A stretch of 55,858 bases of DNA from IMG/VR virus record IMGVR_UViG_3300027601_000004; one strand, given 5' to 3'. A program made the position numbers and the translations under genes. A model generated the notes under the pieces. It worked only from the letters and a program-made list of their open reading frames with translations. It was not told the DNA's origin and made no database searches. Positions within the stretch are counted from its first letter, which is position 1. Each line of letters starts with the position of its first letter. This stretch comes from a virus. Taxonomy: Duplodnaviria > Heunggongvirae > Uroviricota > Caudoviricetes. Positions 3,109-42,717 of the stretch are shown piece by piece.

Positions 3109-3906
3109 ATGGTTACAACAGAAATTAGTTTAGAACAAAATAAACATCTACTATTCCTTTTACCTGGACAGAGTTTATCGCCACGTGCTTTCTGGGACTT
3201 TAAACTTTCAGATGGTCACACGCACATAGACTATTTTCTTGGTGCTGGTATCGATGTAATCTTATTTGATCCATGTGGTTATGGTGAGAGTACTGACTAT
3301 TATCAGTATGACAGAGTTGGATATGCAGATCAGATTGAATCTGCTATTAAAGAACTTAAGAAAGAATACGTTTCCAAAACTATATTTGGTTTCTCAACAT
3401 CAACTGCTCCTGCGTTGATTGCTGGAGAAAGAGGTTTATTCGATAAGATTATCATTCACAGTCCATCTGTTCGCATGGATAAAAGATATTATGTTGAGTT
3501 TGACACAGAATATTTTGAAACTGGCATCGAGAAACTTAAAAAAGAAAGACTCGAAAAGATTAGTGACAAGTTGATTGGCAAACCAAATAGAATTGACGGA
3601 TGGGAACAAAAGATTCTTGATGTTGTTGGCTCTACAACATGGAAAGTTCCATCGCAACCTGTTTATGATATCAACAATTATTGGGTTGATACTGGTCAAC
3701 TTGGGTTCGATCCTGCAAAGGTTCCACCGATCCTAAGTATTATCGGTGAGTATGACTATGAGTCTACCACAGGTGGATATGATACCTTTAAGGGACTGTT
3801 TCCAGACTCCAAGGAAGTAATTATCCCTCAGTCTACCCATTTCTCTATGTGGGAGAATTCATCGGCTCTAACTCGCTTGGAAATGATCCAATGGGTCTTG
3901 AAATAA
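3109..3906 (+). CDS. alpha/beta hydrolase
   Basis: LPGQS oxyanion loop, DPCGYGES, GFSTS elbow, GEYD, STHFSMWE. Confidence 0.8.
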   Translation: MVTTEISLEQNKHLLFLLPGQSLSPRAFWDFKLSDGHTHIDYFLGAGIDVILFDPCGYGESTDYYQYDRVGYADQIESAIKELKKEYVSKTIFGFSTSTAPALIAGERGLFDKIIIHSPSVRMDKRYYVEFDTEYFETGIEKLKKERLEKISDKLIGKPNRIDGWEQKILDVVGSTTWKVPSQPVYDINNYWVDTGQLGFDPAKVPPILSIIGEYDYESTTGGYDTFKGLFPDSKEVIIPQSTHFSMWENSSALTRLEMIQWVLK

Positions 3907-3939
3907 CCCTACACTTTGCAGGGTTATTAAAAATAATGC

Positions 3940-3968
3940 TTTACAATAATTCAAAAGTAGGGTATAAT
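3940..3968 (+). promoter_or_regulatory. sigma70-type early promoter
   Basis: TTTACA-N17-TATAAT, preceded by inverted repeat at 3903-3927. Confidence 0.8.
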
Positions 3969-3996
3969 TGTTATTAGAAAGTGAGGAATTATTCCT

Positions 3997-5097
3997 ATGG
4001 CTATGAATACAGCGAAACGTAAAGAACTTATTGCAAAAGTTAATGGTAGTGAACCTGAGTTAAACTCTGCTAGGTATAACAGCAGTTTTCTTGAGATACT
4101 CAACTACTACAACTACAACAACGACGACAAAGATAAGAAGAAGTGGCTTATCAGTCATGTTGCAAAATCAAACAAGAAACTCGCAGCACAACTTCTGAAG
4201 ATTGACGAGAAACATTTTCGTTATGCTGGCATCCTTGCACGCATCAGCGATCGTGGTGGTCAACTAGCAGAAAATCATCTACTATTTCTTGAGAATCGCA
4301 TCAAAGAACTGACTGCGATGAAAGAAGTCAAGAAAGAAGTTATCGTTAAAAAAGAAGAAACCCCTACCAATGTAATTTCTATTCAGGAAAGAATGGATGA
4401 GAAAGCACACGATCTCGCTGGTGAGATCGAAGGTGCCATCGATGACTTCGTGTTGGGTGGTTGTAAGTCTGACTTCTCAGCTAAAAACTATCTACTTGCA
4501 CAACAGGTAGCAGCACCGATTGCTAAACGTATCGGGGAGTTGTTCGTGCCAACAGCAGATGAATTGCGTGAAGCAATCGCAGGTGATGACGAGCAACTTG
4601 TTGAAGGATACTCAAACTTTACCAAGCGTGAACTCAAGAAGTTCTTGGAGTTTGTTGATAATATTATTGCTGACTGTAACCAGATGGTTCAGACTGCTAA
4701 GGCTAATCGTGCTCCACGTAAACGTAAGGAAGTACCTGCAGGTAAGCAGGTAGCGAAGATGAAGTATCTCAAAGATTTTGCAGAACTTAATCTAAAGTCT
4801 GTGAACCCAGCAAGTATCATCGGCTCAACCGAAGTCTGGTACTACAACACCAAATACAAACATGTTGGTGTATACAAAGGTGAGAATGGTGGAACTCTAT
4901 CAGTTAAGGGAACTACCATCATCGGTTTCGATATTAAAGAATCAAAGCGTATGACTCTACGCAAACCCGAAGAATTCTTCAAAGGGTTGTCGTTGGGTAA
5001 ACGTGCATTGAACAGTGCAATCAAAACACTAAAGACCAAACCAGCAGTACCGAATGGTCGATTCAATGAAGACTGCATTTTACTTGGAGCATTTTAA
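3997..5097 (+). CDS. conserved hypothetical protein of T4-like phages
   Basis: 366 aa ORF with SD (GAGGA) after a strong promoter; no recognisable catalytic motif. Confidence 0.75.
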   Translation: MAMNTAKRKELIAKVNGSEPELNSARYNSSFLEILNYYNYNNDDKDKKKWLISHVAKSNKKLAAQLLKIDEKHFRYAGILARISDRGGQLAENHLLFLENRIKELTAMKEVKKEVIVKKEETPTNVISIQERMDEKAHDLAGEIEGAIDDFVLGGCKSDFSAKNYLLAQQVAAPIAKRIGELFVPTADELREAIAGDDEQLVEGYSNFTKRELKKFLEFVDNIIADCNQMVQTAKANRAPRKRKEVPAGKQVAKMKYLKDFAELNLKSVNPASIIGSTEVWYYNTKYKHVGVYKGENGGTLSVKGTTIIGFDIKESKRMTLRKPEEFFKGLSLGKRALNSAIKTLKTKPAVPNGRFNEDCILLGAF

Positions 5098-15468: not shown

Positions 15469-15966
15469 ATGTCTTACACTAGACCGCCAAATGCAGTCCT
15501 TGCTGGAAGAGCATTAAAGCAGAATCCTGAGCCATCTCCCATACAACCAACTGGTGTATTGCCAGTATCTTTGGATGTTGAGATTGCTTCAAAGAATCAG
15601 TTAGGTGTTGTTCAAATCGGCAGCGGAATTGAAGTAACAGAGGATGGTCTTATTTCCGTCACAGGAGAAGACGATTCAAACTGTATTTTAAATGCTACAC
15701 TTGTAAGCGAATCTTACAACGTTGCTGAAGATGATTGTTATATTGGTGTTGATGCAGAAAAAGCTACTACAATAACATTACCAACAAATCCTGTAAAGGG
15801 TAAAGTTATTATTGTTAAAGCTGAAATGAAACCACCACTGGGTAATCGTAAAATTACAATTACTACAGATGATGGAACATTGATCGATGGATATCAAAAC
15901 TGCATCATACAAGTTTCCAATGAAACGGTAAGATTATTGTTTAGAGATGGTTGGCGTATAATTTAA
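15469..15966 (+). CDS. small beta-rich protein, paralog D
   Basis: LGVVQIGSGIEV repeat; ITLPTNPVKGK..IVK..ITITTDDG.LIDG...V.LLF.DGW.II. Confidence 0.8.
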   Translation: MSYTRPPNAVLAGRALKQNPEPSPIQPTGVLPVSLDVEIASKNQLGVVQIGSGIEVTEDGLISVTGEDDSNCILNATLVSESYNVAEDDCYIGVDAEKATTITLPTNPVKGKVIIVKAEMKPPLGNRKITITTDDGTLIDGYQNCIIQVSNETVRLLFRDGWRII

Positions 15967-15977
15967 GGAGAACGAAA

Positions 15978-16223
15978 ATGAAAAAAATGGTAAAAACCAT
16001 TGTTGTAGAAAAAATGGATGATGGAACTATTTGTATAGATCACAATTTGTTGCATCGTCTATTATCTTGGTCAATGGCATATGCAAAGAGTGACGATGAT
16101 ATCGTACACTTGGTAGATGCAGTTGTGCAAGAAAGTGATGATGGAGACACTCTCACAATGAAACACTACACATACATCGCAGATAGAATGGCGAAGCACG
16201 CAGCGAAAGCACAAGAAGCGTGA
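15978..16223 (+). CDS. hypothetical protein
   Basis: ATG at 15978 after AAGGAG SD; last gene of the late cluster. Confidence 0.65.
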   Translation: MKKMVKTIVVEKMDDGTICIDHNLLHRLLSWSMAYAKSDDDIVHLVDAVVQESDDGDTLTMKHYTYIADRMAKHAAKAQEA

Positions 16224-16434
16224 TAACCATTCTCGGTTTGATTGTTGTCCGAAAACAACAATAATTTAAGGTAAGCGTACTACCTAAACAGACGTCGGTT
16301 TTTCTGTTGTCCGATAACAACAGATTTTTTCACATTTATTTTACTTTTATTCAAAACACAGGTAAAATTTGACTAAATAGATTACTGGCTGAAAATAATA
16401 ACCCTGCAAGAAGTAGGGTTATTAAATTTAGTGC

Positions 16435-16463
16435 TTTACTTTAATTCAGAAAAGGTGTATAAT
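16435..16463 (+). promoter_or_regulatory. sigma70-type early promoter of the tRNA array
   Basis: TTTACT-N17-TATAAT, inverted repeat at 16398-16422. Confidence 0.85.
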
Positions 16464-16469
16464 TCTTAC

Positions 16470-16589
16470 ATGAACTCGAAAATGATATCCTTAGGCAGAA
16501 AGCATCTACCACTTAATAGTGGATGGTCATGCTCACGCCCACAGTATACATTTGCGATTGAGTTAGACACTGGGGGTTTTGTAAAGTAA
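16470..16589 (+). CDS. putative leaderless attenuator leader peptide (39 aa, all 20 amino acids)
   Basis: MNSKMISLGRKHLPLNSGWSCSRPQYTFAIELDTGGFVK*; ATG 7 nt after the -10 box; 3' end overlaps antiterminator strand. Confidence 0.6.
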   Translation: MNSKMISLGRKHLPLNSGWSCSRPQYTFAIELDTGGFVK

Positions 16590-16611
16590 ACTAATACAAA
16601 GTTTGTTTTCC

Positions 16612-16650
16612 AAAACCCCTGCGATGAAAATCCAGGGGTTTTTTGTTTTT
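16612..16650 (+). terminator. attenuator terminator upstream of tRNA array
   Basis: AAAACCCCTG-C-GAT-GAAA-ATC-CAGGGGTTTT followed by TTGTTTTT. Confidence 0.85.
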
Positions 16651-16695
16651 AGGGCATCGTCCCATCTGTTCTTTAAAAATTTGCGTACCAAATGT

Positions 16696-16769
16696 TCCCG
16701 AATGGTGTAGTGGTAGCACAGCAGACTTTGACTCTGTTAGTATAAGTTCGATTCTTATTTCGGGTGCCA
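16696..16769 (+). tRNA. tRNA-Gln(TTG)
   Basis: cloverleaf, loop CT-TTG-AC, encoded CCA. Confidence 0.93.
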
Positions 16770-16852
16770 TATTAAAACATATTGCAGTGGGTCTGTAAGT
16801 ATGAGTCGCATTCGCAAGAGTGTCCGTGGACTGGATGTAGTGTGTTTTAATA
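16770..16852 (+). ncRNA. unknown structured RNA between tRNA-Gln and tRNA-Lys
   Basis: ~17-bp closing stem with G:U pairs; inner GCAA tetraloop hairpin. Confidence 0.55.
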
Positions 16853-16853
16853 T

Positions 16854-16927
16854 GGGAGTATAACTTAATGGTAAAGTAGCTGGCTTTTAACCAGCAAATC
16901 AGAGTTCAATTCTCTGTGCTCCTACCA
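16854..16927 (+). tRNA. tRNA-Lys(TTT)
   Basis: cloverleaf, GCTGG-CT-TTT-AA-CCAGC, CCA. Confidence 0.95.
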
Positions 16928-16937
16928 AAGTTACTAT

Positions 16938-17013
16938 GGTGTTTATAGTGTAGTGGTCTGCACATCTCGCTGTGACCGAGATAGTATGAGTTCAATCCTC
17001 ATTAAACACCCCA
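16938..17013 (+). tRNA. tRNA-His(GTG)
   Basis: G-1 present, TCTCG-CT-GTG-AC-CGAGA, C73+CCA. Confidence 0.93.
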
Positions 17014-17015
17014 AT

Positions 17016-17091
17016 GCTGCTTTAGCTGATGTGGTCATAGCAGGGGTCTGAAGAACCTCGGAAAGTAGTTCGATTCTACTAGGCAGCACCA
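17016..17091 (+). tRNA. tRNA-Phe(GAA)
   Basis: cloverleaf, loop CT-GAA-GA, CCA. Confidence 0.92.
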
Positions 17092-17092
17092 T

Positions 17093-17167
17093 ACCCGATT
17101 AGCTCAGTGGTAGAGCAATCGCTTGATAAGCGATAGGTGAGTGGATCGTTACCACTATCGGGTACCA
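17093..17167 (+). tRNA. tRNA-Ile(GAT)
   Basis: ATCGC-TT-GAT-AA-GCGAT, CCA. Confidence 0.93.
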
Positions 17168-17174
17168 AGTTTAT

Positions 17175-17249
17175 GCAGGATTAATTCAGTGGTAGAATGT
17201 TTCGTTGCCAACGAAAATGTCATCGGTTCGAACCCGATATCCTGCTCCA
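17175..17249 (+). tRNA. tRNA-Gly(GCC)
   Basis: TTTCG-TT-GCC-AA-CGAAA, U73+CCA. Confidence 0.95.
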
Positions 17250-17257
17250 GTTATTAT

Positions 17258-17333
17258 GGGACGTTAACTCAGTTGGTAGAGTTCCTGCCTTACACGCAGG
17301 CTGTCGGGAGTTCGAGTCTCTCACGTCCCACCA
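17258..17333 (+). tRNA. tRNA-Val(TAC)
   Basis: CCTGC-CT-TAC-AC-GCAGG, CCA. Confidence 0.95.
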
Positions 17334-17338
17334 AATAT

Positions 17339-17428
17339 GGAAGTGTGGCAGAGTCTGGTTTATTGCACCTGTCTTGAAAACAGACGATCAGAAATGGTCC
17401 GTGAGTTCGAATCTCACCGCTTCCGCCA
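17339..17428 (+). tRNA. tRNA-Ser(TGA)
   Basis: long variable arm, loop CT-TGA-AA, G73+CCA. Confidence 0.94.
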
Positions 17429-17433
17429 AATTT

Positions 17434-17509
17434 ACCCGATTGGTGAAATGGATGATCACGCTGTGCTACGAACGCAGAAGTGGAGGTTCGATTCCTTCAT
17501 TGGGTGCCA
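17434..17509 (+). tRNA. tRNA-Arg(ACG)
   Basis: CTGTG-CT-ACG-AA-CGCAG, CCA. Confidence 0.93.
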
Positions 17510-17516
17510 AAGTTTT

Positions 17517-17606
17517 GGAAGATGGGCAGGATGGTAATGCAGCGGATTGCTAATCCGTACAGTTGTGAAAGCAGCTGAGTGAGTTCGACTCTCACATCTT
17601 CCGCCA
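17517..17606 (+). tRNA. tRNA-Ser(GCT)
   Basis: long variable arm, loop TT-GCT-AA, CCA. Confidence 0.94.
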
Positions 17607-17614
17607 AAGTTTTT

Positions 17615-17697
17615 GCGAGTGTGGTGAAATTGGTAAACACAGGAGACTTAAAATCTCCCGCTTCGGCTTGTCGGTTCGAGTCCGACCATTCGCACCA
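17615..17697 (+). tRNA. tRNA-Leu(TAA)
   Basis: GGAGA-CT-TAA-AA-TCTCC, UUCG variable arm, CCA. Confidence 0.95.
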
Positions 17698-17702
17698 AGT
17701 TT

Positions 17703-17777
17703 ATCCCCATAGTATAATGGATAATGCAGCAGTCTTCTAAACTGCGAATCGAGGTTCGATTCCTCGTGGGGGTGCCA
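17703..17777 (+). tRNA. tRNA-Arg(TCT)
   Basis: GCAGT-CT-TCT-AA-ACTGC, CCA. Confidence 0.93.
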
Positions 17778-17783
17778 GTTGTT

Positions 17784-17858
17784 GGGCTGATAGCTTAATG
17801 GTAAAGCAGTCGACTCATAATCGATTGAGTGAGAGTTCAATTCTCTCTCAGCCCACCA
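17784..17858 (+). tRNA. tRNA(CAT), probably Ile2 (lysidine type)
   Basis: GTCGA-CT-CAT-AA-TCGAT anticodon arm resembles bacterial ileX rather than elongator Met. Confidence 0.85.
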
Positions 17859-17860
17859 AT

Positions 17861-17939
17861 GCCCTTGTGGACAAATTGGTAAAGTCGTCTCTCTCAAAAG
17901 GAGAAGTTGTTCTCAGTTCGAATCTGAGCAGGGGTACCA
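17861..17939 (+). tRNA. tRNA-Leu(CAA) with short variable region
   Basis: TCTCT-CT-CAA-AA-GGAGA; Leu-type D arm; CCA. Confidence 0.85.
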
Positions 17940-17945
17940 GAATAT

Positions 17946-18022
17946 GTGAGTGTGCTGCTGAATGGTTAGGCGACGGATTGCAAATCCGTTTCATGCAGGT
18001 TCGAGTCCTGTCACTCACTCCA
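17946..18022 (+). tRNA. tRNA-Cys(GCA)
   Basis: ACGGA-TT-GCA-AA-TCCGT, U73+CCA. Confidence 0.93.
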
Positions 18023-18044
18023 AGATGTTGCAATAAAATATTGC

Positions 18045-18073
18045 TTTACTTTAATTCAAGTATCATGTATAAT
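18045..18073 (+). promoter_or_regulatory. internal sigma70-type promoter in tRNA array
   Basis: TTTACT-TTAATTC..-TATAAT, 17-bp spacer. Confidence 0.8.
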
Positions 18074-18092
18074 TAATGTTCTTGATTGAAAT

Positions 18093-18167
18093 GCACGATT
18101 CGTCTATCGGTTAGGACACTGCCCTTTCACGGCAGGAAGAGGAGTTCGATTCTCCTATCGTGTACCA
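18093..18167 (+). tRNA. tRNA-Glu(TTC)
   Basis: CTGCC-CT-TTC-AC-GGCAG, CCA. Confidence 0.94.
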
Positions 18168-18168
18168 G

Positions 18169-18395
18169 ATTTAATTGCATTGGGTTACCAAACCAGTAGG
18201 ATGCATGAGCATTGGCTGTCTCGACGGAGATGGGTGCGTCATGTATCAGGAAAGATGGAAACGAAGTCTATGGACGGATACGGTGGTCACGCTGGAGTTA
18301 GTTGGAACGTAATGTGGATGGGAACCAATCGTCAGACGATGACGTGGTTAGCTACCGAGTGGTAGTTGTTGCCAAACATCCCAGTGCAATTAAAT
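18169..18395 (+). ncRNA. unknown ~227-nt structured RNA
   Basis: ATTTAATTGCATTGGG (18169-84) pairs with CCCAGTGCAATTAAAT (18380-95). Confidence 0.6.
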
Positions 18396-18523
18396 GTGGT
18401 ATTAGTTTTGCTGATGTAAGCCATGGGCTTGATCATGCCTGAGTAACTATGTACATAAACGGTAAATGCTGCAGCTAATTCCGTTGAGCATAGCAAATAG
18501 TGCGTCAGCAAAACTAATATCAT
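18396..18523 (+). ncRNA. unknown ~128-nt structured RNA
   Basis: 23-bp terminal stem 18396-18418 / 18501-18523 with G:U pairs, abutting tRNA-Tyr. Confidence 0.6.
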
Positions 18524-18611
18524 GGGTGCTTAGTCCCGTAATGGTATCGGGGGGAGACTGTAAATCTCTTGTCTTAGTGCCTTCTCTGTTCGAATCGGAG
18601 AGCACCCACCA
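18524..18611 (+). tRNA. tRNA-Tyr(GTA)
   Basis: GGAGA-CT-GTA-AA-TCTCT, long variable arm, CCA. Confidence 0.9.
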
Positions 18612-18619
18612 AATTATTT

Positions 18620-18694
18620 GGCTCGTTCGTATAATGGTCATTACGTCGGATTGTCTATCCGATCATGGGAGTTCGATTCTCCCACGAGTCGCCA
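18620..18694 (+). tRNA. tRNA-Asp(GTC)
   Basis: TCGGA-TT-GTC-TA-TCCGA, G73+CCA. Confidence 0.93.
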
Positions 18695-18712
18695 AGTTAG
18701 TGAAAGGAAAAT

Positions 18713-19072
18713 ATGTATTGGGGTTATCACTTAATGCTTGATTGTTCTGAATGTGATGTTGATTCGATCAAAGATAAGCAAAACATTTATAATTTTGTCA
18801 AGACATTGGTGAAGGAAATTGATATGGTTGCTCATGGTGAGCCAATTATTGAATTTCTTTGTCCAGGAGATCCTGATAAAGAAGGGTATAGTTTGATGCA
18901 GTTGATTACTACATCATCTATCACTGGACATTTTATTGATCACGATAGACATATATACCTAGATGTGTTTAGTTGTAAAGAGTTTGATCCAAGTGTGGTC
19001 AAACGTGTAGTAGAAAAGTTTTTTGATTCTCGTAAGATGCGAATGAATTTTATTACGAGAAATGCAGGTTAA
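18713..19072 (+). CDS. speD: S-adenosylmethionine decarboxylase proenzyme-like protein
   Basis: GYHLMLDC, GYS..QLITTSSITGHF (self-cleavage region), YLDVFSCKEFD. Confidence 0.85.
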   Translation: MYWGYHLMLDCSECDVDSIKDKQNIYNFVKTLVKEIDMVAHGEPIIEFLCPGDPDKEGYSLMQLITTSSITGHFIDHDRHIYLDVFSCKEFDPSVVKRVVEKFFDSRKMRMNFITRNAG

Positions 19073-19073
19073 T

Positions 19074-19147
19074 AGCGGATTAGAGAAAAGGTATCTCAGC
19101 AGTCTCATACGCTGCAGTTGGTGGTTCGAGTCCATCATCCGCAACCA
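19074..19147 (+). tRNA. tRNA-Met(CAT), probably initiator type
   Basis: loop CT-CAT-AC, 1:72 mismatch (A:A), CCA. Confidence 0.82.
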
Positions 19148-19332
19148 GAAATTAGTCCCGCAATGGCTATGACAGATAATCCCTATTCTGTTATCCACAC
19201 TTCTGCGAGGTGGGTGTAAGTCCCATCATTAAAAATATGCGAGTGATGGTGGACTTCGCATACGGATGTCAAGACCTGAGGATCGTCGTCCAACATTAGC
19301 AAGACACAAGGTTCTCTGTGTAGGGACAGAGG
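19148..19332 (+). ncRNA. possible structured RNA (several hairpins, T-loop-like arm)
   Basis: GGTGGG-TGTAAGT-CCCATC, TATGCGA/TCGCATA stem, GTCCC/GGGAC ends; no + strand ORF. Confidence 0.35.
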
Positions 19333-19511
19333 GCATTGTTGAAAGTGTGTGCGAAAGAATAAGCAATCCAAACTGTTATGGAAGATCACCATCCTAATCA
19401 AGTCAGCCCGATATCTAGGAAATAGTAGCTTGCTGACGCTACGTGAACGATGCGATTAGGAGAGTCTTTATTATCCGACTCTTAAACATACAACAGTACT
19501 TTCAACAATGT
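19333..19511 (+). ncRNA. unknown ~180-nt structured RNA
   Basis: GCATTGTTGAAAGTG pairs with TACTTTCAACAATGT; inner TCCTAATC/GATTAGGA, TCAGC/GCTGA, AGAGTC/GACTCT stems. Confidence 0.6.
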
Positions 19512-19513
19512 TA

Positions 19514-19596
19514 GCCCCGATGGTGGAATTGGTAGACACGCTGGTCTTAGAAGCCAGTACTTCGGTGTGCGAGTTCGAGTCTCGCTTGGGGCACCA
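19514..19596 (+). tRNA. tRNA-Leu(TAG)
   Basis: CTGGT-CT-TAG-AA-GCCAG, variable arm, CCA. Confidence 0.95.
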
Positions 19597-19602
19597 AATT
19601 TC

Positions 19603-19677
19603 GGTGATGTAGCACAGTGGTAGTGCAACTGCTTCATACGCAGTAGGTCGTTGGCTCGAATCCAACCATCACCACCA
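19603..19677 (+). tRNA. tRNA-Met(CAT), elongator type
   Basis: ACTGC-TT-CAT-AC-GCAGT, paired acceptor, CCA. Confidence 0.88.
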
Positions 19678-19684
19678 GTTTTAT

Positions 19685-19761
<77 letters not shown>

Positions 19762-19771
19762 ATATATAATA

Positions 19772-19845
19772 GCCCTATTAGTTAAATGGTAGAACATCGG
19801 TTTTGTAATCCGAGGACGGGAGTTCGATTCTCTCATGGGGCACCA
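19772..19845 (+). tRNA. tRNA-Thr(TGT)
   Basis: loop TT-TGT-AA, CCA. Confidence 0.92.
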
Positions 19846-19853
19846 AAGTTTAT

Positions 19854-19928
19854 TCCGAAGTAGCACAGCGGTAGTGCAGTTGACTGTTAATCAATTGGTC
19901 GGTGGTTCGATCCCACCCTTCGGAGCCA
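19854..19928 (+). tRNA. tRNA-Asn(GTT)
   Basis: GTTGA-CT-GTT-AA-TCAAT, G73+CCA. Confidence 0.95.
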
Positions 19929-19947
19929 ATATATAAAAGGAGATAAC

Positions 19948-20076
19948 ATGGCAGGTAAAGGCAGTGTTAGTAAGCATCAAAGAGTTGTTAAGAAAACTTC
20001 CCAGAATGGAAGTAAAACAAGCACCTTAAATAAATCTAAAAAGACTCACAAGAAATATAGGGGACAAGGAAGATGA
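19948..20076 (+). CDS. small basic protein ending in KKYRGQGR
   Basis: SD AAGGAG; MAGKGSVSKHQRVVKKTSQNGSKTSTLNKSKKTHKKYRGQGR*; below the ORF-track cutoff. Confidence 0.7.
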   Translation: MAGKGSVSKHQRVVKKTSQNGSKTSTLNKSKKTHKKYRGQGR

Positions 20077-20291
20077 CTGATGGTGGCAAAGGAAGTAAAC
20101 CAAGACCATTTAGTGTAACACAAGATGAATATGATAATCGTTGGAATGCAATCTTTCAACGAGATGATGTTGTGAGTAAGTCAGAAGCAAAAAGATTAGC
20201 TACTATGCAAATGGCTGATGAATTAGAAGAATATAAGAAACAAGCACAAGATCTTTGGAGTGATAGTTGTACTACTCCAAGATCAAAATAA
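20073..20291 (+). CDS. hypothetical protein (GGKGSKPRP N-terminal motif)
   Basis: ATGA overlap with the previous ORF. Confidence 0.7.
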   Translation: MTDGGKGSKPRPFSVTQDEYDNRWNAIFQRDDVVSKSEAKRLATMQMADELEEYKKQAQDLWSDSCTTPRSK

Positions 20292-20293
20292 TT

Positions 20294-20367
20294 GGGGGAT
20301 TAGTTAAATGGGATAACATCGGCTTTGCAAGCCGAGATTGAGAGTTCGATTCTCTCATCCTCCACCA
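20294..20367 (+). tRNA. tRNA-Ala(TGC)
   Basis: G3:U70, TCGGC-TT-TGC-AA-GCCGA, CCA. Confidence 0.95.
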
Positions 20368-20371
20368 AATC

Positions 20372-20447
20372 GCCCACGTAGCTCAGTTGGTAGAGCATCT
20401 GATTAGTAATCAGGAGGTCGGGAGTTCGAGTCTCTCCGTGGGCACCA
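20372..20447 (+). tRNA. tRNA-Thr(AGT), unusual A34 anticodon
   Basis: TCTGA-TT-AGT-AA-TCAGG; Thr-type GCCCACG acceptor; CCA. Confidence 0.9.
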
Positions 20448-20450
20448 AAT

Positions 20451-20524
20451 GTCTCGATGGTGTAATGGCAGCATAGCAGTCTCCAAAACTGTTGGTTGGG
20501 GTTCGAGTCCCTATCGGGATGCCA
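20451..20524 (+). tRNA. tRNA-Trp(CCA)
   Basis: GCAGT-CT-CCA-AA-ACTGT, G73+CCA. Confidence 0.92.
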
Positions 20525-20606
20525 GAAAAGTCCACTGAATATAAAGAGGTGGCAGATTAATCACCGAAAGGTTTGATTAGCAGCAGGTGAAAACCCTGCA
20601 CCCAAT
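20525..20606 (+). ncRNA. possible small RNA with GAAA hairpin and T-arm-like element
   Basis: TAATCA-CCGAAAGG-TT-TGATTA and GCAGG-TGAAAAC-CCTGC. Confidence 0.35.
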
Positions 20607-20680
20607 GCGGGGTTAGTTTAATGGTAAAACAGCAGATTTCCAATCTTCGGTTGAGAGTTCGATTCTCTCACTCCGCTCCA
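20607..20680 (+). tRNA. tRNA-Gly(TCC)
   Basis: loop TT-TCC-AA, U73+CCA. Confidence 0.93.
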
Positions 20681-20701
20681 TTCTAATAATAGAGGTGTAA
20701 T

Positions 20702-21178
20702 ATGCGTAAAGCAATTGACATTGATGAAGTTAGAGATTTCATCATGGCACAGACTCCAGAAACAAAAGTTTATATCGGTGGAGATTCTGAACGATTTTTA
20801 ATTGGAAAAGATTGGTACGCAGATTACATTATGGTTGTTGTTGTCCATATCAATGGAAACAATGGCTGTAAGATTTTTGGTGAAGTGCAACGTGAACGTG
20901 ACTGGGATCAGAAACGTGATAGACCACGTATGCGTCTTATGAATGAAGTTTATAAGATTGCAGATCTATACACCAAAATTCATGACGTACTAGAAGATAG
21001 AGAAGTGCAAGTTCATTTGGATATTAACCCAGATGAAATGTATGGATCATCTTGTGTGATAAACGAAGCAGTTGGTTACATCAAAGGAATGTGTAACGTA
21101 GTTCCTATGGTGAAACCAAAAGCATTTGCTGCATCATATGCTGCTGACAGATATAAGTCGTTCATGCAAGCTGCATAA
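20702..21178 (+). CDS. RNase H-like YkuK (DUF458) family protein
   Basis: VYIGGDS, RLMNEV, VHLDINPD...S, VKPKAFAASYAAD. Confidence 0.85.
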   Translation: MRKAIDIDEVRDFIMAQTPETKVYIGGDSERFLIGKDWYADYIMVVVVHINGNNGCKIFGEVQRERDWDQKRDRPRMRLMNEVYKIADLYTKIHDVLEDREVQVHLDINPDEMYGSSCVINEAVGYIKGMCNVVPMVKPKAFAASYAADRYKSFMQAA

Positions 21179-21207
21179 ATAGTAGTATACTACTATGTGA
21201 GGATATT

Positions 21208-21951
21208 ATGGAAAAACAATTTAAGTACGAAGTACACGATGATGTGATATCAAAACAGCAGCAAGAAGAAGTTTGGAAATATATCCGTGGACTTGAGCAC
21301 TATGCCATGATGAAGGATGCCAACTATCCAAAAGTTGGCACTGTTGTAACATATTTCCCAGAAGAAAACAAAAAAGAATACAACAATAAAGACCTTCCAT
21401 CATGGAATAGTCAGTTCATGCACAGGGTTACGTTTGGCAACTCTGAGAATGATTTAGAGTTTCGTCATCGACCAATCTACAAACTCTGGAAAGAAATAAA
21501 CAAGCATCTCGGTAATAGATTCATCATTGATGGCGATAAAGAAGGATGCTGGTCTAAAAATAATCCAAATTTCTTGCAGCGTGTTTATGTGAACGTGCAA
21601 GGTAACGAAGAGATTAAAAGATCTCATGGTGTTCATCGTGACACCATCGATATGAATGAAACCAGAAACTACACGTTACTATACCTAGCCAATCCAGTTT
21701 GGCATCCAACGTGGTTCGGTGAAAATATATTCTATGAGAACGATGATCCAACAGGCGATCATCAGCAGTTCCAAAAAGGATGGGGACAATCCAGAGGTTT
21801 CTCTGTTGGCTTCCCATACGCAACAATCCCAACACTTCCAGGTCGAATCATCCTTTATGATGGTAGGACATTACACACAACCAGACCTGTAGCTGAATGG
21901 GCAGAATGTTTTAGATACTCATTAGCATTTAGAGTTCGATTAAAGGAGTAG
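21208..21951 (+). CDS. 2OG-Fe(II) oxygenase (prolyl hydroxylase-like)
   Basis: HRD...YTLLYLAN..W...W.GE...PGRIILYDG..LH...RYSLAFR. Confidence 0.85.
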   Translation: MEKQFKYEVHDDVISKQQQEEVWKYIRGLEHYAMMKDANYPKVGTVVTYFPEENKKEYNNKDLPSWNSQFMHRVTFGNSENDLEFRHRPIYKLWKEINKHLGNRFIIDGDKEGCWSKNNPNFLQRVYVNVQGNEEIKRSHGVHRDTIDMNETRNYTLLYLANPVWHPTWFGENIFYENDDPTGDHQQFQKGWGQSRGFSVGFPYATIPTLPGRIILYDGRTLHTTRPVAEWAECFRYSLAFRVRLKE

Positions 21952-21952
21952 T

Positions 21953-22582
21953 ATGTTTACTATATTGGAGGACTGTAGTCCTTATTATATTAGATTCACT
22001 TATCCAGCAGCACAGAAAGTAATTGACTTATGCAATTACCATTTGGAAAACTATAAATTCGATCATGATAGATTTCTGACATTTGATGACGAAACAGGAC
22101 AACAGATATTGGAAGAAACACAATTACTTCCATATCTTGATTTAATGAAACGTCGTGTATCAATATTTTATACAAATGGTGGATATAAATCACCTGTGCA
22201 TAAAGATGGTAGAGATCACAGAATCAGTATTAACTTTGCTGTTAAAGTTCTTGATGATAAGTGCACTACAAGTTGGTATCCAGATGTTATCTCTCCAGGT
22301 TATTCCCCAGATCTAGTTGACCTTACCGAGAAACATAAAGTTGGTGGTGTGAAAGCTGCGAAAAAAATCGACTCACGAGAGTTTGATGATTTCGATGAAA
22401 CTAAACACAAACCAGTTAAACATATGTGCGCTAAACAAAATGATGTTATATTGTTCAACACAGATATATGGCATCGTTGGGTAAACAAATCGAATCAGCA
22501 TCGTGCGATGTTAACACTTAGAGTTAATAATCCTGGAACTTTTTATTTTAAAGACGCACGGAAAGCATTGTTTGGAAAATAA
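21953..22582 (+). CDS. cupin/2OG-Fe(II) oxygenase-like protein
   Basis: HKDG...SINF...LFNTDIWH...R. Confidence 0.6.
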   Translation: MFTILEDCSPYYIRFTYPAAQKVIDLCNYHLENYKFDHDRFLTFDDETGQQILEETQLLPYLDLMKRRVSIFYTNGGYKSPVHKDGRDHRISINFAVKVLDDKCTTSWYPDVISPGYSPDLVDLTEKHKVGGVKAAKKIDSREFDDFDETKHKPVKHMCAKQNDVILFNTDIWHRWVNKSNQHRAMLTLRVNNPGTFYFKDARKALFGK

Positions 22583-22583
22583 C

Positions 22584-23483
22584 ATGAAATTTCGTTATGG
22601 TAGTGACGACTGGGTACATTATGATTACAGCATAGTCAATCAGCGTGCTACATTCTCAGTAAAGCTGAAACCAACATCATTAGCCAAAGAAGATATAAAT
22701 TTTACGCAAGCATCAGATAATGTTGCAAAAGAATTATATCAAACTTACGGTAAAATATACGTAGCAATGAGCGGAGGAATAGACTCCGAGTATGTGGCAA
22801 ATACATTCCTACGAAACAAGATTCACTTTCAACCAATTATATTCAAAGCAGAAGATCTAAACGAACTAGATGTTTGGTGGGCTATTGAATGGTGTAAGGC
22901 GAATAACAGAGAACCAATAATAATTAAACAATCAATCAAACAATTCTGTGATGGATTGATTAAACAGTCACGCATGTTTGGTGTGCGTTGGTTTCCAGGT
23001 GTATATGCGATAAACCAGTGTGCTGAATATGCTAAGAAAAATGGTGGTGTTTTGACAACAGGTTCGGGTAATTATACACATTACCCAGATCTGGTCTTAT
23101 CGCAGATGAAGAAAACTAGCCAGGATGTTTATAAGTATGACGACTACAGGATCGTTGAGGATGGTTATTACACCCACCTACCTTTTTTAGTTAGTCACCA
23201 ACTCAATCCAGAAATGCCGATAAACTTTCTGGAATGGAATCCGCAGATTGTTTATAGCTACATAAAAGAATATGATTTAAATTTCGACAGTGCAGTTAAT
23301 AAAGCAAGAATAATGGGGTGCGACAGGAGACCAAAAAATGTAGGATATCCAGAATATTTTTGGAGAACAGAACCACTGTTGCAAGAAGAAAATAGAAAGC
23401 GAAGATTTATTACTACACCGCAAACTGAAGTAGATTATCTTGGCAGTAGAGATCGAGTAATGAACCTATTGAGAGGAATATAA
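22584..23483 (+). CDS. PP-loop (ANH superfamily) protein
   Basis: YVAMSGGIDSE motif; paralogous in type to 9420-10586. Confidence 0.65.
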   Translation: MKFRYGSDDWVHYDYSIVNQRATFSVKLKPTSLAKEDINFTQASDNVAKELYQTYGKIYVAMSGGIDSEYVANTFLRNKIHFQPIIFKAEDLNELDVWWAIEWCKANNREPIIIKQSIKQFCDGLIKQSRMFGVRWFPGVYAINQCAEYAKKNGGVLTTGSGNYTHYPDLVLSQMKKTSQDVYKYDDYRIVEDGYYTHLPFLVSHQLNPEMPINFLEWNPQIVYSYIKEYDLNFDSAVNKARIMGCDRRPKNVGYPEYFWRTEPLLQEENRKRRFITTPQTEVDYLGSRDRVMNLLRGI

Positions 23484-24175
23484 TGGAATCAATGGAACAG
23501 AAACCAATCACTTATGTAAGACATAACGATGAAGTTGTTGATGAGGTACATAATCTTTGGCAGACACCAGTCGTCACAGCCAGACCATTCACTGAAGAAT
23601 TTATTCAACAACTGGAAGCTGATACGAAATATTTGTTGAAGCCAGGATCACCTGCTACATTTAACAAAACTAATATATGGGAACTACCAGATCTACCTGA
23701 TAGTTTTAGAGAAGTAGAGAAAAAGTTTGTTGAGTTAACAGACAAATACTATCGCCCACTAACTGAGATGCCATTGCCACCATTGTTCTGCTCGAAGGGT
23801 TACTTCAGAGATATCAAACAGAACAGTGTGTATCGCATTTCACCACACAAGCATGCCCAGACTTTGGGTGTAGGTATTATCTATCTCACAGTACCTAAAC
23901 GCAACGCAGGTAATTTGGTGTTACTTGATCCACGTGGTGGTGTTATGTGGCACAATCAATTTACACCATTCAAACGCATTGCTGTTGAACGTGGACTGAT
24001 GGTTATTCATCCAGGTTATCTGGTTCACTTCGTTGAGCCGACTGATTATGATAACGCACGTTATGATTATAGAAACGCAGTTGTATCCAATATTCATTGG
24101 AAGCACTCAGACTTCATTAAAGAACTTGAGAAGAATGAACAACAAGTATATAAAATGGGGAGTATCGAGGTATGA
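23483..24175 (+). CDS. 2OG-Fe(II) oxygenase (TIGR02466-like)
   Basis: HKH...GIIYL...GNLVLLDPRG...HPGYLVHFV...R. Confidence 0.75.
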   Translation: MESMEQKPITYVRHNDEVVDEVHNLWQTPVVTARPFTEEFIQQLEADTKYLLKPGSPATFNKTNIWELPDLPDSFREVEKKFVELTDKYYRPLTEMPLPPLFCSKGYFRDIKQNSVYRISPHKHAQTLGVGIIYLTVPKRNAGNLVLLDPRGGVMWHNQFTPFKRIAVERGLMVIHPGYLVHFVEPTDYDNARYDYRNAVVSNIHWKHSDFIKELEKNEQQVYKMGSIEV

Positions 24176-25608
24176 TGTTCTTCGAGAAGTATAAAGAATT
24201 TGTTGATGCCGATCCAAGAAAAGATCGTTCCATGGTTCAGGTTAATTATGAAACTATGACTAAACGATGTGAGGTGAGTTTACCTAAATGGTTAATCGAA
24301 GGTAAAACCATTTTAGATCTTGGTAGTTGTTATGGTGCATATGGTCAATGGGCATTAATGAATGGTGCTAAAAATTACACTGGTGTTGAATTACAAAAAG
24401 AGTTCGCACGTTCATCTAGTCAGATGTTATCGAAATATCATACAAATTTTTCTATAATTGAAAAGGATGCTTTACAATTTTTAAGAGACGCATCTTATTT
24501 GAATGACAAATACGATATAATTATAGCTGCAGGAGTGATTCATGGATTCACTGATGTAATTGAACTTATTAGACATATGAGTCTTGTAGCAAATGAATAT
24601 ATCATTATTGAATCTATGGAAGTAGAAGAACCAGTATACCCAAGAATTGAGTTTAAGCCATACAGAATGGTTGTTCCAAAAGAAACACCAGAAAGTAATT
24701 ACAGATATTCTGAAGGATTTACTGCTATTGCTGGATTTAAAGCAGTATCATTTATCTTACATGAAAATGGATTCGTTAACGATGGTGGTAAACTTGAACC
24801 AGAAAAAATAAATTCAAGTTTAGATGCATACAATACACCGATTTATGATTATAAAACTGATAGCTCCAAAGATGCGTCCACGATTACAGTTGAGAGATAC
24901 ATCGGTAGATTTAAAAAACAGGAAACTAAAAAAGTTTCTTTACAATCCAATACCACATCCTCACAGTTTAAAGAACTTCCTGGAACACCCCAGTGGTCTT
25001 TTGATGATTCTGTAGCAAAACGATTCCAGCAAGAAGCAATGACCAATATACCAGATTACGAGAGAGTTCTTGGTATGTGTCTTGGAGTCGCCAACAAAAA
25101 GTTTGATAAAAACATCTCTATTATTGATGTGGGTTCTGCTCTGGGGCACACTATGGATATTTTTGTAAAAGACGGATTCAAAAATATATCTGGTGTTGAT
25201 AACTCAGCAGAAATGATTACAAACAGTTTATACAAACATAAAGTAGTTATGTCAAGTAAGCTGCCAAAAGGAAATTATGATATGGTGTTGGCAAACTGGA
25301 CATTACATTTTGTCGATGAGCGTAAACAATACATTCAAGATATATACGATAATATGAAACACAATGGTGTGTTTATTTTATCAGACAAGACACCGCAGGA
25401 TCAAATTATTAAAGAAATGTATTATGACTTCAAACGCAACAATGGTGTGACCAACGAATACATATATGGGAAAGAAGAAAAATTAAAAGGATATATGAAT
25501 TTGATGCCAGTTGAATGGTATATGCAAACTCTTAAAGATATAGGATTCAAGTCAATTCAAATAATTAATAGTAGATTTAGTTTTGTTACATTTTATTGCG
25601 AGAAATAA
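24172..25608 (+). CDS. two-domain class I SAM methyltransferase (CmoB-like N-domain, CmoA-like C-domain)
   Basis: ILDLGSCYG and IIDVGSALG motif I twice; WSFDDSVA..F, NWTLHFV, LSDK as in CmoA family. Confidence 0.8.
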   Translation: MMFFEKYKEFVDADPRKDRSMVQVNYETMTKRCEVSLPKWLIEGKTILDLGSCYGAYGQWALMNGAKNYTGVELQKEFARSSSQMLSKYHTNFSIIEKDALQFLRDASYLNDKYDIIIAAGVIHGFTDVIELIRHMSLVANEYIIIESMEVEEPVYPRIEFKPYRMVVPKETPESNYRYSEGFTAIAGFKAVSFILHENGFVNDGGKLEPEKINSSLDAYNTPIYDYKTDSSKDASTITVERYIGRFKKQETKKVSLQSNTTSSQFKELPGTPQWSFDDSVAKRFQQEAMTNIPDYERVLGMCLGVANKKFDKNISIIDVGSALGHTMDIFVKDGFKNISGVDNSAEMITNSLYKHKVVMSSKLPKGNYDMVLANWTLHFVDERKQYIQDIYDNMKHNGVFILSDKTPQDQIIKEMYYDFKRNNGVTNEYIYGKEEKLKGYMNLMPVEWYMQTLKDIGFKSIQIINSRFSFVTFYCEK

Positions 25609-42135: not shown

Positions 42136-42160
42136 CATTAATGAGAAAGCAGGGTATAAT
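42132..42160 (+). promoter_or_regulatory. sigma70-type promoter upstream of tmRNA
   Basis: TTGACA-N17-TATAAT. Confidence 0.8.
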
Positions 42161-42310
42161 GGTATTAAATGCTGAGATTGCACCAAATATAATTATATTT
42201 GAACAGAAAGAACTTCCTGAAGGATGGAAAGAGGGAGATATGTTTAAAGTTGTTATTGGTGCGAACGGACAAGTTACGCTAATCAAGTCAACAAAAGATG
42301 GCGTAATGTA

Positions 42311-42600: not shown

Positions 42601-42717
42601 CGAATTAGTGAAGTCTTTGCTCGATGTTAGCAACCGATGCCCAATTGGCTCTTGTACTAACTAAAGTGGCGACATTAATTATGCAGTGGATCATATTAAC
42701 TTTTACAAGGAACTATC

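Follow-up and report, generated by a model that had tools for sequence, protein, structure and literature searches.

For fifty years it has been asked why phages have tRNA genes of their own; the answers now given are that these provide codon compensation, replace a host pool that decays, or allow escape from defences that cleave tRNA (PMC10264068, PMC11555353). In an uncultured freshwater T4-like phage, of which a DNA stretch of 55,858 nt (the window) was analysed, a short leader element sits at the head of the tRNA array. A preliminary description of this DNA had proposed that a leaderless leader peptide containing all 20 amino acids gates the array. Our analysis indicates that the element is probably a ribosome-mediated (trp-type) transcription attenuator controlling read-through from an early promoter into the tRNA array, with a probability of roughly 0.7. 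The features are listed in Table 1.

Table 1. Predicted features of the leader element and tRNA array, with positions in the window
Feature	Position	Strand	Basis or detail
Intrinsic terminator of upstream operon	16303..16330	+	TCTGTTGT-CCGATA-ACAACAGA + T6; terminator scan and sequence
P1 promoter-like site with conserved initial sequence GACTAAATAGAT	16340..16387	+	TTTACT-17-TAAAAT at 16340-16368
Conserved hairpin AACCCTGC-AAGAA-GTAGGGTT, P1-P2 interval	16400..16420	+	Alignment of relatives, arm changes compensatory
Promoter P2	16435..16463	+	-35 TTTACT, 17-nt spacer, -10 TATAAT; 10/12 consensus matches
Leaderless leader ORF	16470..16589	+	39 codons + TAA; 20 different amino acids, 33 different codons
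Small conserved hairpin within ORF	16509..16522	+	CCAC-TTAATA-GTGG; RNAalifold consensus of 28 leaders
Antiterminator hairpin (2:3)	16572..16620	+	5' arm 16572-16592, loop 16593-16599, 3' arm 16600-16620
Intrinsic terminator (3:4)	16612..16650	+	Stem 16612-16621 with 16633-16642, then T6-G-T5 tract
Spacer	16651..16695	+	Small hairpin with conserved CATCGT loop (16652-16663); motif TGTTCTTTAAAAATTTGCG (16667-16685)
First tRNA block, 15 genes	16696..18022	+	ARAGORN and Rfam; directly behind switch
Internal promoter, same family as P2	18045..18073	+	TTTACT-17-TATAAT, 20 nt before tRNA-Glu
Array remainder, 13 tRNAs interspersed with other RNAs and ORFs	18093..20680	+

The upstream unit has its 3' end at an intrinsic terminator, so the leader module constitutes a separate transcription unit. 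The promoter named in the preliminary description, with a consensus -10 hexamer ending at 16463, was recovered and is of a type, TTKAC-N18-TAnAAT, that forms a family of 14 copies in the window, compared to 0.72 expected. P2 has the appearance of a consensus early promoter, and its predicted +1 is A16470, the A of the ATG, because six bases separate the -10 hexamer from that A. A distance of 6-7 nt between the -10 hexamer and the ATG was kept throughout the relatives, and inspection of the sequence ahead of the leader ATG detected no Shine-Dalgarno sequence. The claim of an ATG shortly after the -10 hexamer that opens a 39-codon ORF without a Shine-Dalgarno sequence was confirmed at the same coordinates, and the translation agreed with the 20 amino acids and 33 codons described. 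Contigs from four river metatranscriptome RNA runs extended from 16396 or 16402 to 16557 or 16656, and further contigs covered the tRNAs. These are assembled contigs, given without strand or level, that begin about 70 nt 5' of the predicted +1 (16396-16402). One river contig ended at 16656, directly past the T tract, assembled contigs being prone to break at strain polymorphisms. We infer both the transcription start site and termination in vivo.

The comparative set consisted of 87 related phage loci, representing 47 unique sequences and 43 unique peptides. No close relatives were found among cultured phages, in which DNA matches, all weak, came from tRNA-Gln only, and a neighbouring methyltransferase gave distant protein matches. 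When bacterial and archaeal genomes were scanned for the pattern of the conserved core DNA, the 16 matches were all chance matches in GC-rich genomes in which the ORF was absent. The leader ORF was open and in frame in all 47 unique homologues, while the other two frames were closed in 47/47. Homologous ORFs fell into seven lengths from 114 to 138 nt, every one a multiple of three (37-45 codons), with the start fixed relative to the promoter and the stop fixed relative to the helix. Frame, start and stop, as compared across the relatives, support translation of the ORF. Alignment of related upstream regions, which had been suggested as a check, yielded covarying 2:3 and 3:4 stems in addition to the in-frame ORF.

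The 5' arm of the antiterminator is formed by codons 35-39 and the stop codon. The hairpin has an energy of -20.8 kcal/mol here (-17.5 to -28 in relatives) and represents both the minimum-free-energy fold of the whole leader and the RNAalifold consensus of 28 leaders. Its alignment cells were 91.4% paired compared to at most 67% in slid controls, a level reached by 0 of 500 shuffles, and six pairs changed on both sides. The change of the stop codon from TAA to TAG covaried with a T-to-C change on the 3' arm, and pairing was retained in the variants TTCTGT/ACAGAA, TTTAAG/CTTAAA and GGGAT/ATCC. For the terminator (-18.0 kcal/mol here, about -14 to -22 in relatives), 94.2% of cells were paired compared to at most 69% in slid controls, and four pairs changed on both sides. 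Two further claims, that the end of the leader pairs with the 5' arm of the terminator and that a strong terminator with a T-tract lies at 16612-16642, were thereby substantiated by energy and covariation. Positions 16612-16620 are common to both helices, with an overlap of 8-12 nt in most sequences, and comparative analysis shows the two predicted helices to be mutually exclusive. The antiterminator was usually the more stable of the two, by the ranges given above, so it would be the default fold, and the terminator would need something to hold the 5' arm, a terminating ribosome for example, before it could act.

[quoted passage not shown] It lies 15-18 nt inside the antiterminator arm and 20-27 nt ahead of the terminator stem; in the window the terminator begins 22 nt past the stop codon. 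Judged by published ribosome footprint figures (PMC4824070), a ribosome at the stop codon would block the antiterminator and not the terminator. This geometry is compatible with a terminating ribosome that masks the antiterminator yet spares the terminator.

The whole leader folded better than shuffles (z = -3.1), and conserved structure was confined to the antiterminator and the 4-bp hairpin at 16509-16522. Pairs in this small hairpin were maintained through A-to-G changes (G-U pairs) and one double change, and it might conceivably act as an RNA polymerase pause hairpin. The preliminary description had also included a 1:2 pairing of GCCCACAG (16537-44) with CTGGGGGT. Seven of its 8 positions pair in this sequence, but relatives do not conserve the pairing: 16537-44 and 16570-77 were paired in 72.7% compared to 71.8% in shuffles, and covariation was absent. 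The three-helix 1:2/2:3/3:4 layout was abandoned for this reason, and the switch is, on the predicted folds, a two-state one whose untranslated default is the antiterminator. A search of Rfam at E-values up to 1 over 15900-21200 detected no T-box or other leader family. The only match was a 31-nt chance match at the terminator hairpin.

The genes directly behind the switch are, in order, tRNA-Gln, Lys, His, Phe, Ile, Gly, Val, Ser, Arg, Ser, Leu, Arg, Met, Leu and Cys. This first block covers 12 amino acids; the leader covers nearly all. A sigma-70 scan of the 45-nt spacer before tRNA-Gln found no promoter. In every related locus with enough sequence, the next gene after the leader was tRNA-Gln(ttg), located 88-375 nt past the leader stop, and no tRNAs were found 5' of the leader. 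A total of 28 tRNAs, as originally counted, was obtained from the 27 detected by ARAGORN and a tRNA-Tyr(GTA) at 18524-18611, which was confirmed by aligning the tRNA-Tyr of relatives. Gating of all 28 was not upheld: direct gating is confined to the first 15, since the internal promoter at 18045 provides the part of the array at 18093-20680 with at least one promoter of its own. Some relatives carry an extra promoter between the terminator and tRNA-Gln. Given these two kinds of promoter, the switch is only one input into expression of the array. By inspection, the 28 phage tRNAs can read every leader codon but TCC and CTT, which is not discriminating because a set of 28 tRNAs reads most codons anyway.

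The amino-acid content of the leader was compared with several expectations. Only one of the 111 ORFs of 34-50 codons in the window contains all 20 amino acids, and it is this leader. Each of the 43 unique peptides contained 19 or 20 different amino acids; in 39-residue segments taken from the phage's real proteins, the probability of 20 was 0.001-0.005 and that of 19 or more about 0.04. A tree-aware simulation with independent columns gave 18.28 +/- 0.46 different amino acids compared to the 19.51 observed, and about 55 absences other than Val compared to the one observed; to this within-family statistic, Tyr alignment shifts in the variable segment could contribute, and its tree was built from about 120 nt. 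Cys, His, Glu and Tyr were relocated in homologues rather than lost. One homologue (L080) lost most of the core motif, including its His and Cys, and had both residues back near the N-terminus, with all 20 amino acids kept, while in a further leader (L162) the only Arg had moved.

Four further leader families with the same architecture contained 20 different amino acids in 42, 20 in 48-49, 20 in 49 and 18 in 34 residues (null probabilities 0.011, 0.03, 0.03 and 0.076, respectively). No peptide similarity or common peptide motif was detectable among the five families. Scans for further members added three new variants to family F2 and returned only known or identical loci for F3 and F4. Judged by these comparisons, maintenance of near-complete coverage by selection is strongly supported, both within the family and across the four unrelated ones. 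Coverage has its exceptions. Val was missing in about half of the homologues although their arrays carry tRNA-Val, and when present it lies here within the antiterminator arm, while Asp was always at most about 6 codons from the stop. Both are too near the hairpin for a simple stall model to sense these codons. The claim that the leader samples nearly every tRNA can be retained for completeness, which appears to be under selection, and has to be given up for Asp and Val. No cluster of regulatory codons was found: tandem runs were absent, and the 19-20 amino acids are spread over 37-45 codons.

The proposed mechanism is as follows. RNA polymerase would start at A16470, which puts AUG at the very 5' end of the transcript and would let a ribosome load immediately. 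With fast decoding, the ribosome would reach the stop codon (16587-89) and cover the 5' arm of the antiterminator; the shared strand would then pair downstream to form the terminator, and transcription would end near 16645-16650. If the ribosome is delayed within roughly the first 30 codons, or does not load, the more stable antiterminator would form first, no terminator would follow, and the polymerase would enter tRNA-Gln and the 14 tRNAs behind it. With one or a few codons per amino acid and almost all amino acids covered, the leader would report slow decoding for almost any of them, and this report would act as negative feedback on the phage's own tRNA supply. Loss of the ATG is expected to give constitutive read-through, since the default fold is the antiterminator. 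The response would presumably run in this direction, and the physiological trigger may be codon-usage mismatch, tRNA decay or host anticodon nucleases, the last being pure conjecture.

Three other explanations were weighed against this mechanism. The ORF might be a stand-alone gene for a small functional protein that lies before the array incidentally, with the 2:3 hairpin serving as an mRNA 3' stabiliser or being incidental. In favour of such a gene are the conservation of the ORF and of its core motif, a promoter of its own, a strong terminator, a separate tRNA promoter downstream in some relatives, and an intact-looking copy that persists in L039 without the terminator. That copy, however, has a GTG start, altered core residues and no Arg. 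The leader also diverged in a manner opposite to purifying selection on peptide sequence, which was tested for and not found: for the same genome pairs, amino-acid differences were 0.45-0.55 in the leader and 0.06-0.25 in a flanking 158-aa gene, a 2- to 8-fold excess, whereas synonymous differences at conserved residues were less than half those of that gene (0.20 and 0.47). No PHROGs or Pfam-like match was found for the peptide, the same architecture is occupied by sequence-unrelated peptides, and a stop codon inside a covarying and more stable helix would disable the gene's own terminator unless translation were involved. We consider a small-protein gene improbable. A non-coding small RNA of about 180 nt from promoter to terminator, in which the ORF is fortuitous, would agree with a unit bracketed in this way and with a leader that folds better than its shuffles; T4 tRNA clusters do carry stable RNAs of unknown function. 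Seven ORF lengths that are all multiples of three, two closed frames in every sequence, and a start and stop anchored to promoter and helix are not what a fortuitous ORF would give, nor was structure conserved outside the antiterminator and the 4-bp hairpin or a family matched in Rfam. The chance that the element is such an RNA appears very slight.

The element could also be an attenuator with another input. Its core HLPLLSGWTCSRP could be a nascent arrest or pause peptide for a specific factor or small molecule, or the switch could report leaderless initiation and with it global ribosome or initiation-factor availability. The core HLPL(L/N)SGW(T)CSR was conserved as amino acids, with Leu14, Pro15, Leu16 and Gly21 changing synonymously, many other leader codons were invariant, and the small hairpin and a nucleotide-conserved stretch follow directly after the core. 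Such a core is unexpected for a pure sensor in which codons may stand in any order, and may reflect constraints from pausing, arrest or RNA structure. Conservation extends to the leaderless design, the ribosome-free default is the antiterminator, so that initiation frequency alone would modulate read-through, and Asp and Val lie outside the zone in which stalling could be sensed. Against a fixed motif, the four other families have no peptide motif in common and yet near-complete amino-acid coverage, composition is what the within-family relocation of Cys, His, Glu, Tyr and Arg suggests, and L080 keeps all 20 amino acids after losing most of the core. An input of this kind is in our judgement unlikely, and the attenuator that senses slow decoding is retained as the main reading.

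The proposed attenuator resembles those of trpL, hisL, leuL, thrL, pheL, ilvL/ivbL (multivalent) and pheST in its basic parts: a short ORF close to the promoter, followed by an intrinsic terminator, one strand of which also serves an antiterminator. Among these leaders, thrL and ilvL already respond to more than a single amino acid. As in amino-acid-operon attenuators, the position of the ribosome on the leader would decide which helix forms, with fast decoding leading to termination and slow decoding to read-through, and a ribosome terminating at the stop codon would mask the 5' arm of the antiterminator. The present element differs from them in that it is phage-encoded and leaderless, has no run of regulatory codons but one to a few codons for each of 19-20 amino acids, and precedes tRNAs instead of genes for biosynthetic enzymes or synthetases. 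It also lacks a conserved 1:2 (anti-antiterminator) helix, so an untranslated leader should read through and not super-attenuate. The pheL families have been described (PMC3082878).

T-box riboswitches likewise couple tRNA charging to a choice between antiterminator and terminator upstream of translation-related genes, which is the kind of decision proposed here. They bind one specific uncharged tRNA directly, without translation, and are long structured RNAs that occur chiefly in Firmicutes; no Rfam T-box match, with its stem I, specifier loop and T-box sequence, was obtained at this locus. Also comparable is toiL, a short uORF that precedes topAI-yjhQ in E. coli. It is a generalist translation-stress sensor, with stalling at various positions and from various causes, and it controls premature transcription termination downstream, as is proposed for the present leader (PMC12121999). 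Unlike the present leader, toiL acts through Rho-dependent termination in response to ribosome-targeting antibiotics; it lacks both a terminator/antiterminator pair of the intrinsic kind and a complete amino-acid set, and has no tRNA genes under its control (PMC12121999).

In the literature, leader-peptide attenuation was found described for amino-acid operons, and no published case for tRNA genes was found. If the mechanism is true, phage tRNA supply would be regulated by demand, and the leader would give a direct read-out of which shortage the phage experiences. Classical attenuation would be extended from amino-acid metabolism to tRNA genes, and from the sensing of single amino acids to an almost complete codon sampler. 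The selection would be of an unusual kind, acting on peptide composition and not on sequence, as seen in the relocation of single residues and in unrelated peptides with the same property. On a wider reading, to which we would give even odds, T4-like freshwater phages carry a general decoding sensor, amino-acid complete in at least five sequence-unrelated families, that turns on their own tRNA genes when almost any aminoacyl-tRNA becomes limiting, including through tRNA destruction by anticodon nucleases; tRNA supply would then be a counter-defence that is induced on demand and corrects itself, not a constitutive supplement. Because the parts of the element are all generic, with a leaderless ORF between a sigma-70 promoter and an intrinsic terminator, it could be tested in laboratory bacteria and serve there as a translation-stress reporter.

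Sequences on either side of the switch are conserved as well. A P1-type promoter with the 'TGACTAAATAGAT' arrangement was found 5' of the leader in most relatives. P1, as predicted, could yield leader transcripts that carry a 5' UTR, in which the ORF would not be leaderless, and the hairpin between P1 and P2 is a candidate weak terminator for P1 or a candidate 5' stem-loop. Downstream, the conserved spacer motif TGTTCTTTAAAAATTTGCG occurs once in the window and is possibly a processing signal; in other leader families, too, the first tRNA of transcription units has a related TCTTTAAAAAT motif ahead of it.

The phage behind the window is uncultured, about 160-175 kb in size, and has T4-like genes (a gp32-type SSB, baseplate hub, tube and PhoH). 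No close relative was found among cultured phages, and many relatives occurred in freshwater viral contigs. When the promoter, ORF, helices and tRNAs were re-examined in the window, the sequence observations of the preliminary description were all correct (see the table). ARAGORN counted 27 tRNAs in the array; the tRNA-Tyr(GTA), which comes on top of these, received no ARAGORN call and just a weak tRNA-Sec-like match in Rfam.

Features of the leader module and of related sites (positions in the window unless a related locus is named)
Feature	Position	Remarks
Tail-fibre-like operon	end at 16223	upstream of leader module
Terminator	16303-16330	3' of tail-fibre-like operon
P1, promoter-like site, TTTACT-17-TAAAAT	16340-16368	then conserved TGACTAAATAGAT stretch
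Hairpin AACCCTGC...GTAGGGTT	16400-16420	conserved, covarying; just 5' of P2
P2, leader's own promoter, near-consensus, TTTACT-17-TATAAT	16435-16463	one of a 14-copy promoter family
Leader ORF, 39 codons, ATG start	16470-16589	six bases between -10 and ATG
Antiterminator (2:3 helix)	16572-16592 with 16600-16620	-20.8 kcal/mol; 5' arm = last five codons and stop
Terminator (3:4 helix)	16612-16621 with 16633-16642, then T6-G-T5	-18.0 kcal/mol
Strand common to both helices	16612-16620	
tRNA-Gln	start 16696	first tRNA of array
tRNA-Tyr(GTA)	18524-18611	enlarged D-arm; confirmed by alignment to relatives' tRNA-Tyr
Promoter-family sites, examples	3940, 6482, 16435, 18045, 27069, 39261, 42132, 45747	
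Unusual ARAGORN tRNA calls in relatives	L010 4253-4329; L116 second tRNA after Gln; L067 2622-2713	

Covariation of the two helices was assessed on a MAFFT alignment that had received no tuning and comprised 41 distinct sequences. The antiterminator was paired in 91.4% of cells compared to at most 67% with the partner slid, six pairs had changed on both sides, and none of 500 shuffles matched its pairing. The terminator was paired in 94.2% of cells (at most 69% when slid), with four pairs altered on both sides. Arm variants that preserved pairing included GGGGTTCTGTAAA/TTTACAGAACCCC, TTTAAG/CTTAAA and GGGGTGGGAT/ATCCTACCCT; a stop codon change from TAA to TAG was accompanied by T to C on the opposite arm, and an A to G change in the shared strand yielded G-U in both helices alike. 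The data indicate that antiterminator and terminator are both supported by covariation. The additional 1:2 helix proposed in the preliminary description was not conserved (72.7% paired vs 71.8% in shuffles).

Of the two helices, the antiterminator usually had the lower energy (about -17.5 to -28 vs about -14 to -22 kcal/mol); RNAalifold gave it as the consensus, and folding of the complete leader gave it as the minimum-free-energy structure. Conservation of a terminator that loses to an upstream helix is understandable only if the upstream arm is taken away by some agent. With the stop codon 15-18 nt into the antiterminator arm and 20-27 nt ahead of the terminator stem, a terminating ribosome would mask the antiterminator and leave the terminator free; this geometry agrees with measurements of how ribosome interference with terminators depends on distance (PMC4824070). 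The element is predicted to be a two-state switch whose default without translation is read-through.

Homologous loci were retrieved via the flanking gene (20702-21178), followed by peptide alignment. The 87 module-bearing loci yielded 47 unique ORF sequences and 43 unique peptides, with seven ORF lengths (114-138 nt including the stop) and the frame kept in all; in 47/47 the conserved core was in phase with the ATG and the two alternative frames were closed. Within the same genome pairs, amino-acid differences were 0.45-0.55 in the leader compared to 0.06-0.25 in the flanking 158-aa gene, while synonymous differences at conserved residues were 0.20 and 0.47, respectively. With its high amino-acid and low synonymous divergence relative to the flanking gene, the leader was rejected as an ordinary protein, and it had no match in PHROG or Rfam. 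The pattern is instead the signature of a regulatory leader, in which translation is important, as are particular codons or nucleotides, and the peptide sequence for the most part is not. River metatranscriptome contigs spanned the leader, although such contigs are not reliable for ends or levels.

The window leader contained 20/20 amino acids and 33 different codons. The probability of 20 different residues in 39 was 0.001-0.005 given this phage's proteins, and among 111 ORFs of similar size in the window only the leader had all 20. The window by itself would not make this composition convincing; with the comparative data it becomes so. All 43 unique peptides had 19 or 20 different amino acids, and the only residues ever missing were Val (about half of the peptides) and Cys (once). 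Exactly one His and one Tyr were present in 43/43, a single Cys in 42/43, and one Trp in every peptide except one that has two. The positions of these four residues varied in some lineages: Tyr occupied four different alignment columns, His was shifted by two positions in one locus (L015), and the core WTCSR lacked Cys in three lineages, two of which had gained a Cys near the N-terminus. Glu at AIE was missing in nine sequences, exactly those with Glu at RPE. A divergent main-family member (L080) had lost the core His, Gly and Cys, carried His and Cys near the N-terminus, and still showed 20/20. In a simulation in which columns evolved independently on the family tree, each with its own composition and rate, 18.28 +/- 0.46 different residues were obtained vs 19.51 observed; 19 or more were expected at 20/47 tips and observed at all, and about 55 non-Val absences were expected vs one observed. 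The tree rested on only some 120 nt of sequence, and shifts in the alignment may account for part of the Tyr 'moves'.

A stronger test of completeness was the comparison across families. In more remote relatives, with leaders that BLAST did not detect, the architecture of promoter, short ORF ending in the antiterminator arm, overlapping terminator and tRNAs recurred. Four such families (F2-F5) had no detectable peptide similarity to the main family or among themselves. Twenty different amino acids were found in F2 (L048 type; leaderless, TATACT-6 nt-ATG, 42 aa), F3 (L037/L038; 48-49 aa, start less certain) and F4 (L068; 49 or 45 aa), and 18 in the leaderless F5 (L060; 34 aa), with null probabilities of 0.011, 0.03, 0.03 and 0.076, respectively. 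In one F2 locus (L162) the sole original Arg was gone and a new Arg was present 12 residues upstream. Together, the within-family and cross-family comparisons identify near-complete amino-acid coverage as a selected property of these leaders.

The sequences are best read as a trp-type attenuator that monitors how nearly all amino acids are decoded. Fast decoding of the leader would lead to termination; read-through into the tRNAs would follow if the ribosome were delayed within about the first 30 codons or were absent, giving negative feedback on tRNA supply. Two features of the main family do not sit easily with a plain sampler of amino acids, the amino-acid conservation of the core HLPL(L/N)SGW(T)CSR and the many invariant codons (ATA, TCC, AGT, TGC and CGC). 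The ORF also contained a small hairpin (16509-16522), itself conserved, with a nucleotide-conserved stretch behind it; by inference, the two may form a polymerase pause signal. The positions of Asp and Val are a further imperfect fit: Asp always lay about six codons before the stop and the window's Val lay within the antiterminator arm, and ribosomes stalled at either residue should leave the arm covered. The zone upstream of the arm contained 16-20 amino acids per family. Candidate physiological triggers are codon-usage mismatch, host tRNA decay and anticodon nucleases, the last made attractive by published work on counter-defence by phage tRNAs (PMC10264068, PMC11555353).

As in leader-peptide attenuators, the ORF, terminator, overlapping antiterminator and ORF-end geometry were all present. 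Unlike them, the phage element had neither a run of regulatory codons nor a 1:2 helix, and it is phage-borne, with tRNA genes as target and a generalist input. The nearest generalist sensor, toiL, differs in acting via Rho and antibiotics (PMC12121999). Full-text literature searches returned no account of phage tRNA genes being controlled by a leader peptide.

The P2-type promoter family, with the extended consensus GCTTTACTTTAATTCA-N7-GTATAAT, had 14 copies in the window compared to 0.72 expected, nearly all on the + strand; these are probably early promoters used by host sigma-70. No Shine-Dalgarno sequence preceded the leader ATG, whose A is the predicted canonical +1 from P2, and the -10-to-ATG distance was 6-7 nt in all main-family loci. 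The arrangement of P1, TGACTAAATAGAT and hairpin was found in most relatives and may represent a tandem promoter carrying a 5' stem-loop, or else a short RNA or binding site. P1 may also yield leader transcripts that include a 5' UTR, another imperfect fit with the attenuator reading.

In every related locus with sufficient downstream sequence, the next gene was tRNA-Gln(ttg), 88-375 nt past the stop, and no tRNAs were located upstream of the leader. No sigma-70-like promoter was found in the window's 45-nt spacer before tRNA-Gln; several relatives had an additional promoter between terminator and tRNA-Gln. The proposed gating of 28 tRNAs had to be narrowed, since a same-family promoter at 18045-18073, 20 nt 5' of tRNA-Glu, leaves the first 15 tRNAs alone directly gated. 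L039 is a deletion variant (3830-4160) that lacks the terminator together with the start of the array (first ~12 tRNAs) and retains 10 tRNAs; its leader ORF had a GTG start and altered core residues and was fused to a 15-codon SD-led ORF, followed by tRNA-Leu.

In the window spacer, a small hairpin whose CATCGT loop is conserved and the conserved motif TGTTCTTTAAAAATTTGCG were located at 16651-16685. A hairpin with this invariant loop and TCTTTAAAAAT(T/C)TG were located directly 5' of the unit's first tRNA in the window, L048, L053, L037, L080 and L047, independent of the preceding leader family or promoter, and may serve in 5' processing or stabilisation. Relatives also carried ARAGORN tRNAs with anticodon CTA ('Pyl', amber-reading), 'Stop' and Ile(TAT), which are possible suppressors or unusual decoders. 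Right behind the F3 terminator, a tRNA-like sequence (L037 2640-2745, L038 1710-1815) with a long variable arm and a CCA-like GCCA end received no ARAGORN call, and L060 and L068 had 200-250 nt of GC-rich structured sequence between terminator and first called tRNA.

Elsewhere in the window (42132-42642), a tmRNA gene (tag ANDAQFALAA, with a beta-proteobacterial style ending) was located behind a same-family promoter (42132-42160). The tmRNA, the 28 tRNAs and the leader switch together suggest a translation-maintenance theme and a beta-proteobacterial host. Just 3' of the array, 21208-25608 encoded two 2OG-Fe(II) oxygenase-like proteins plus a protein of 478 aa that has two methyltransferase domains. 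Erwinia and Staphylococcus phages have distant relatives of the 478-aa protein, and these carry the annotation tRNA (cmo5U34-type) methyltransferase; the region may be a tRNA-modification module. An ORF within the array (18713-19072) matched S-adenosylmethionine decarboxylase (phrog_3125, E = 6.5e-24).
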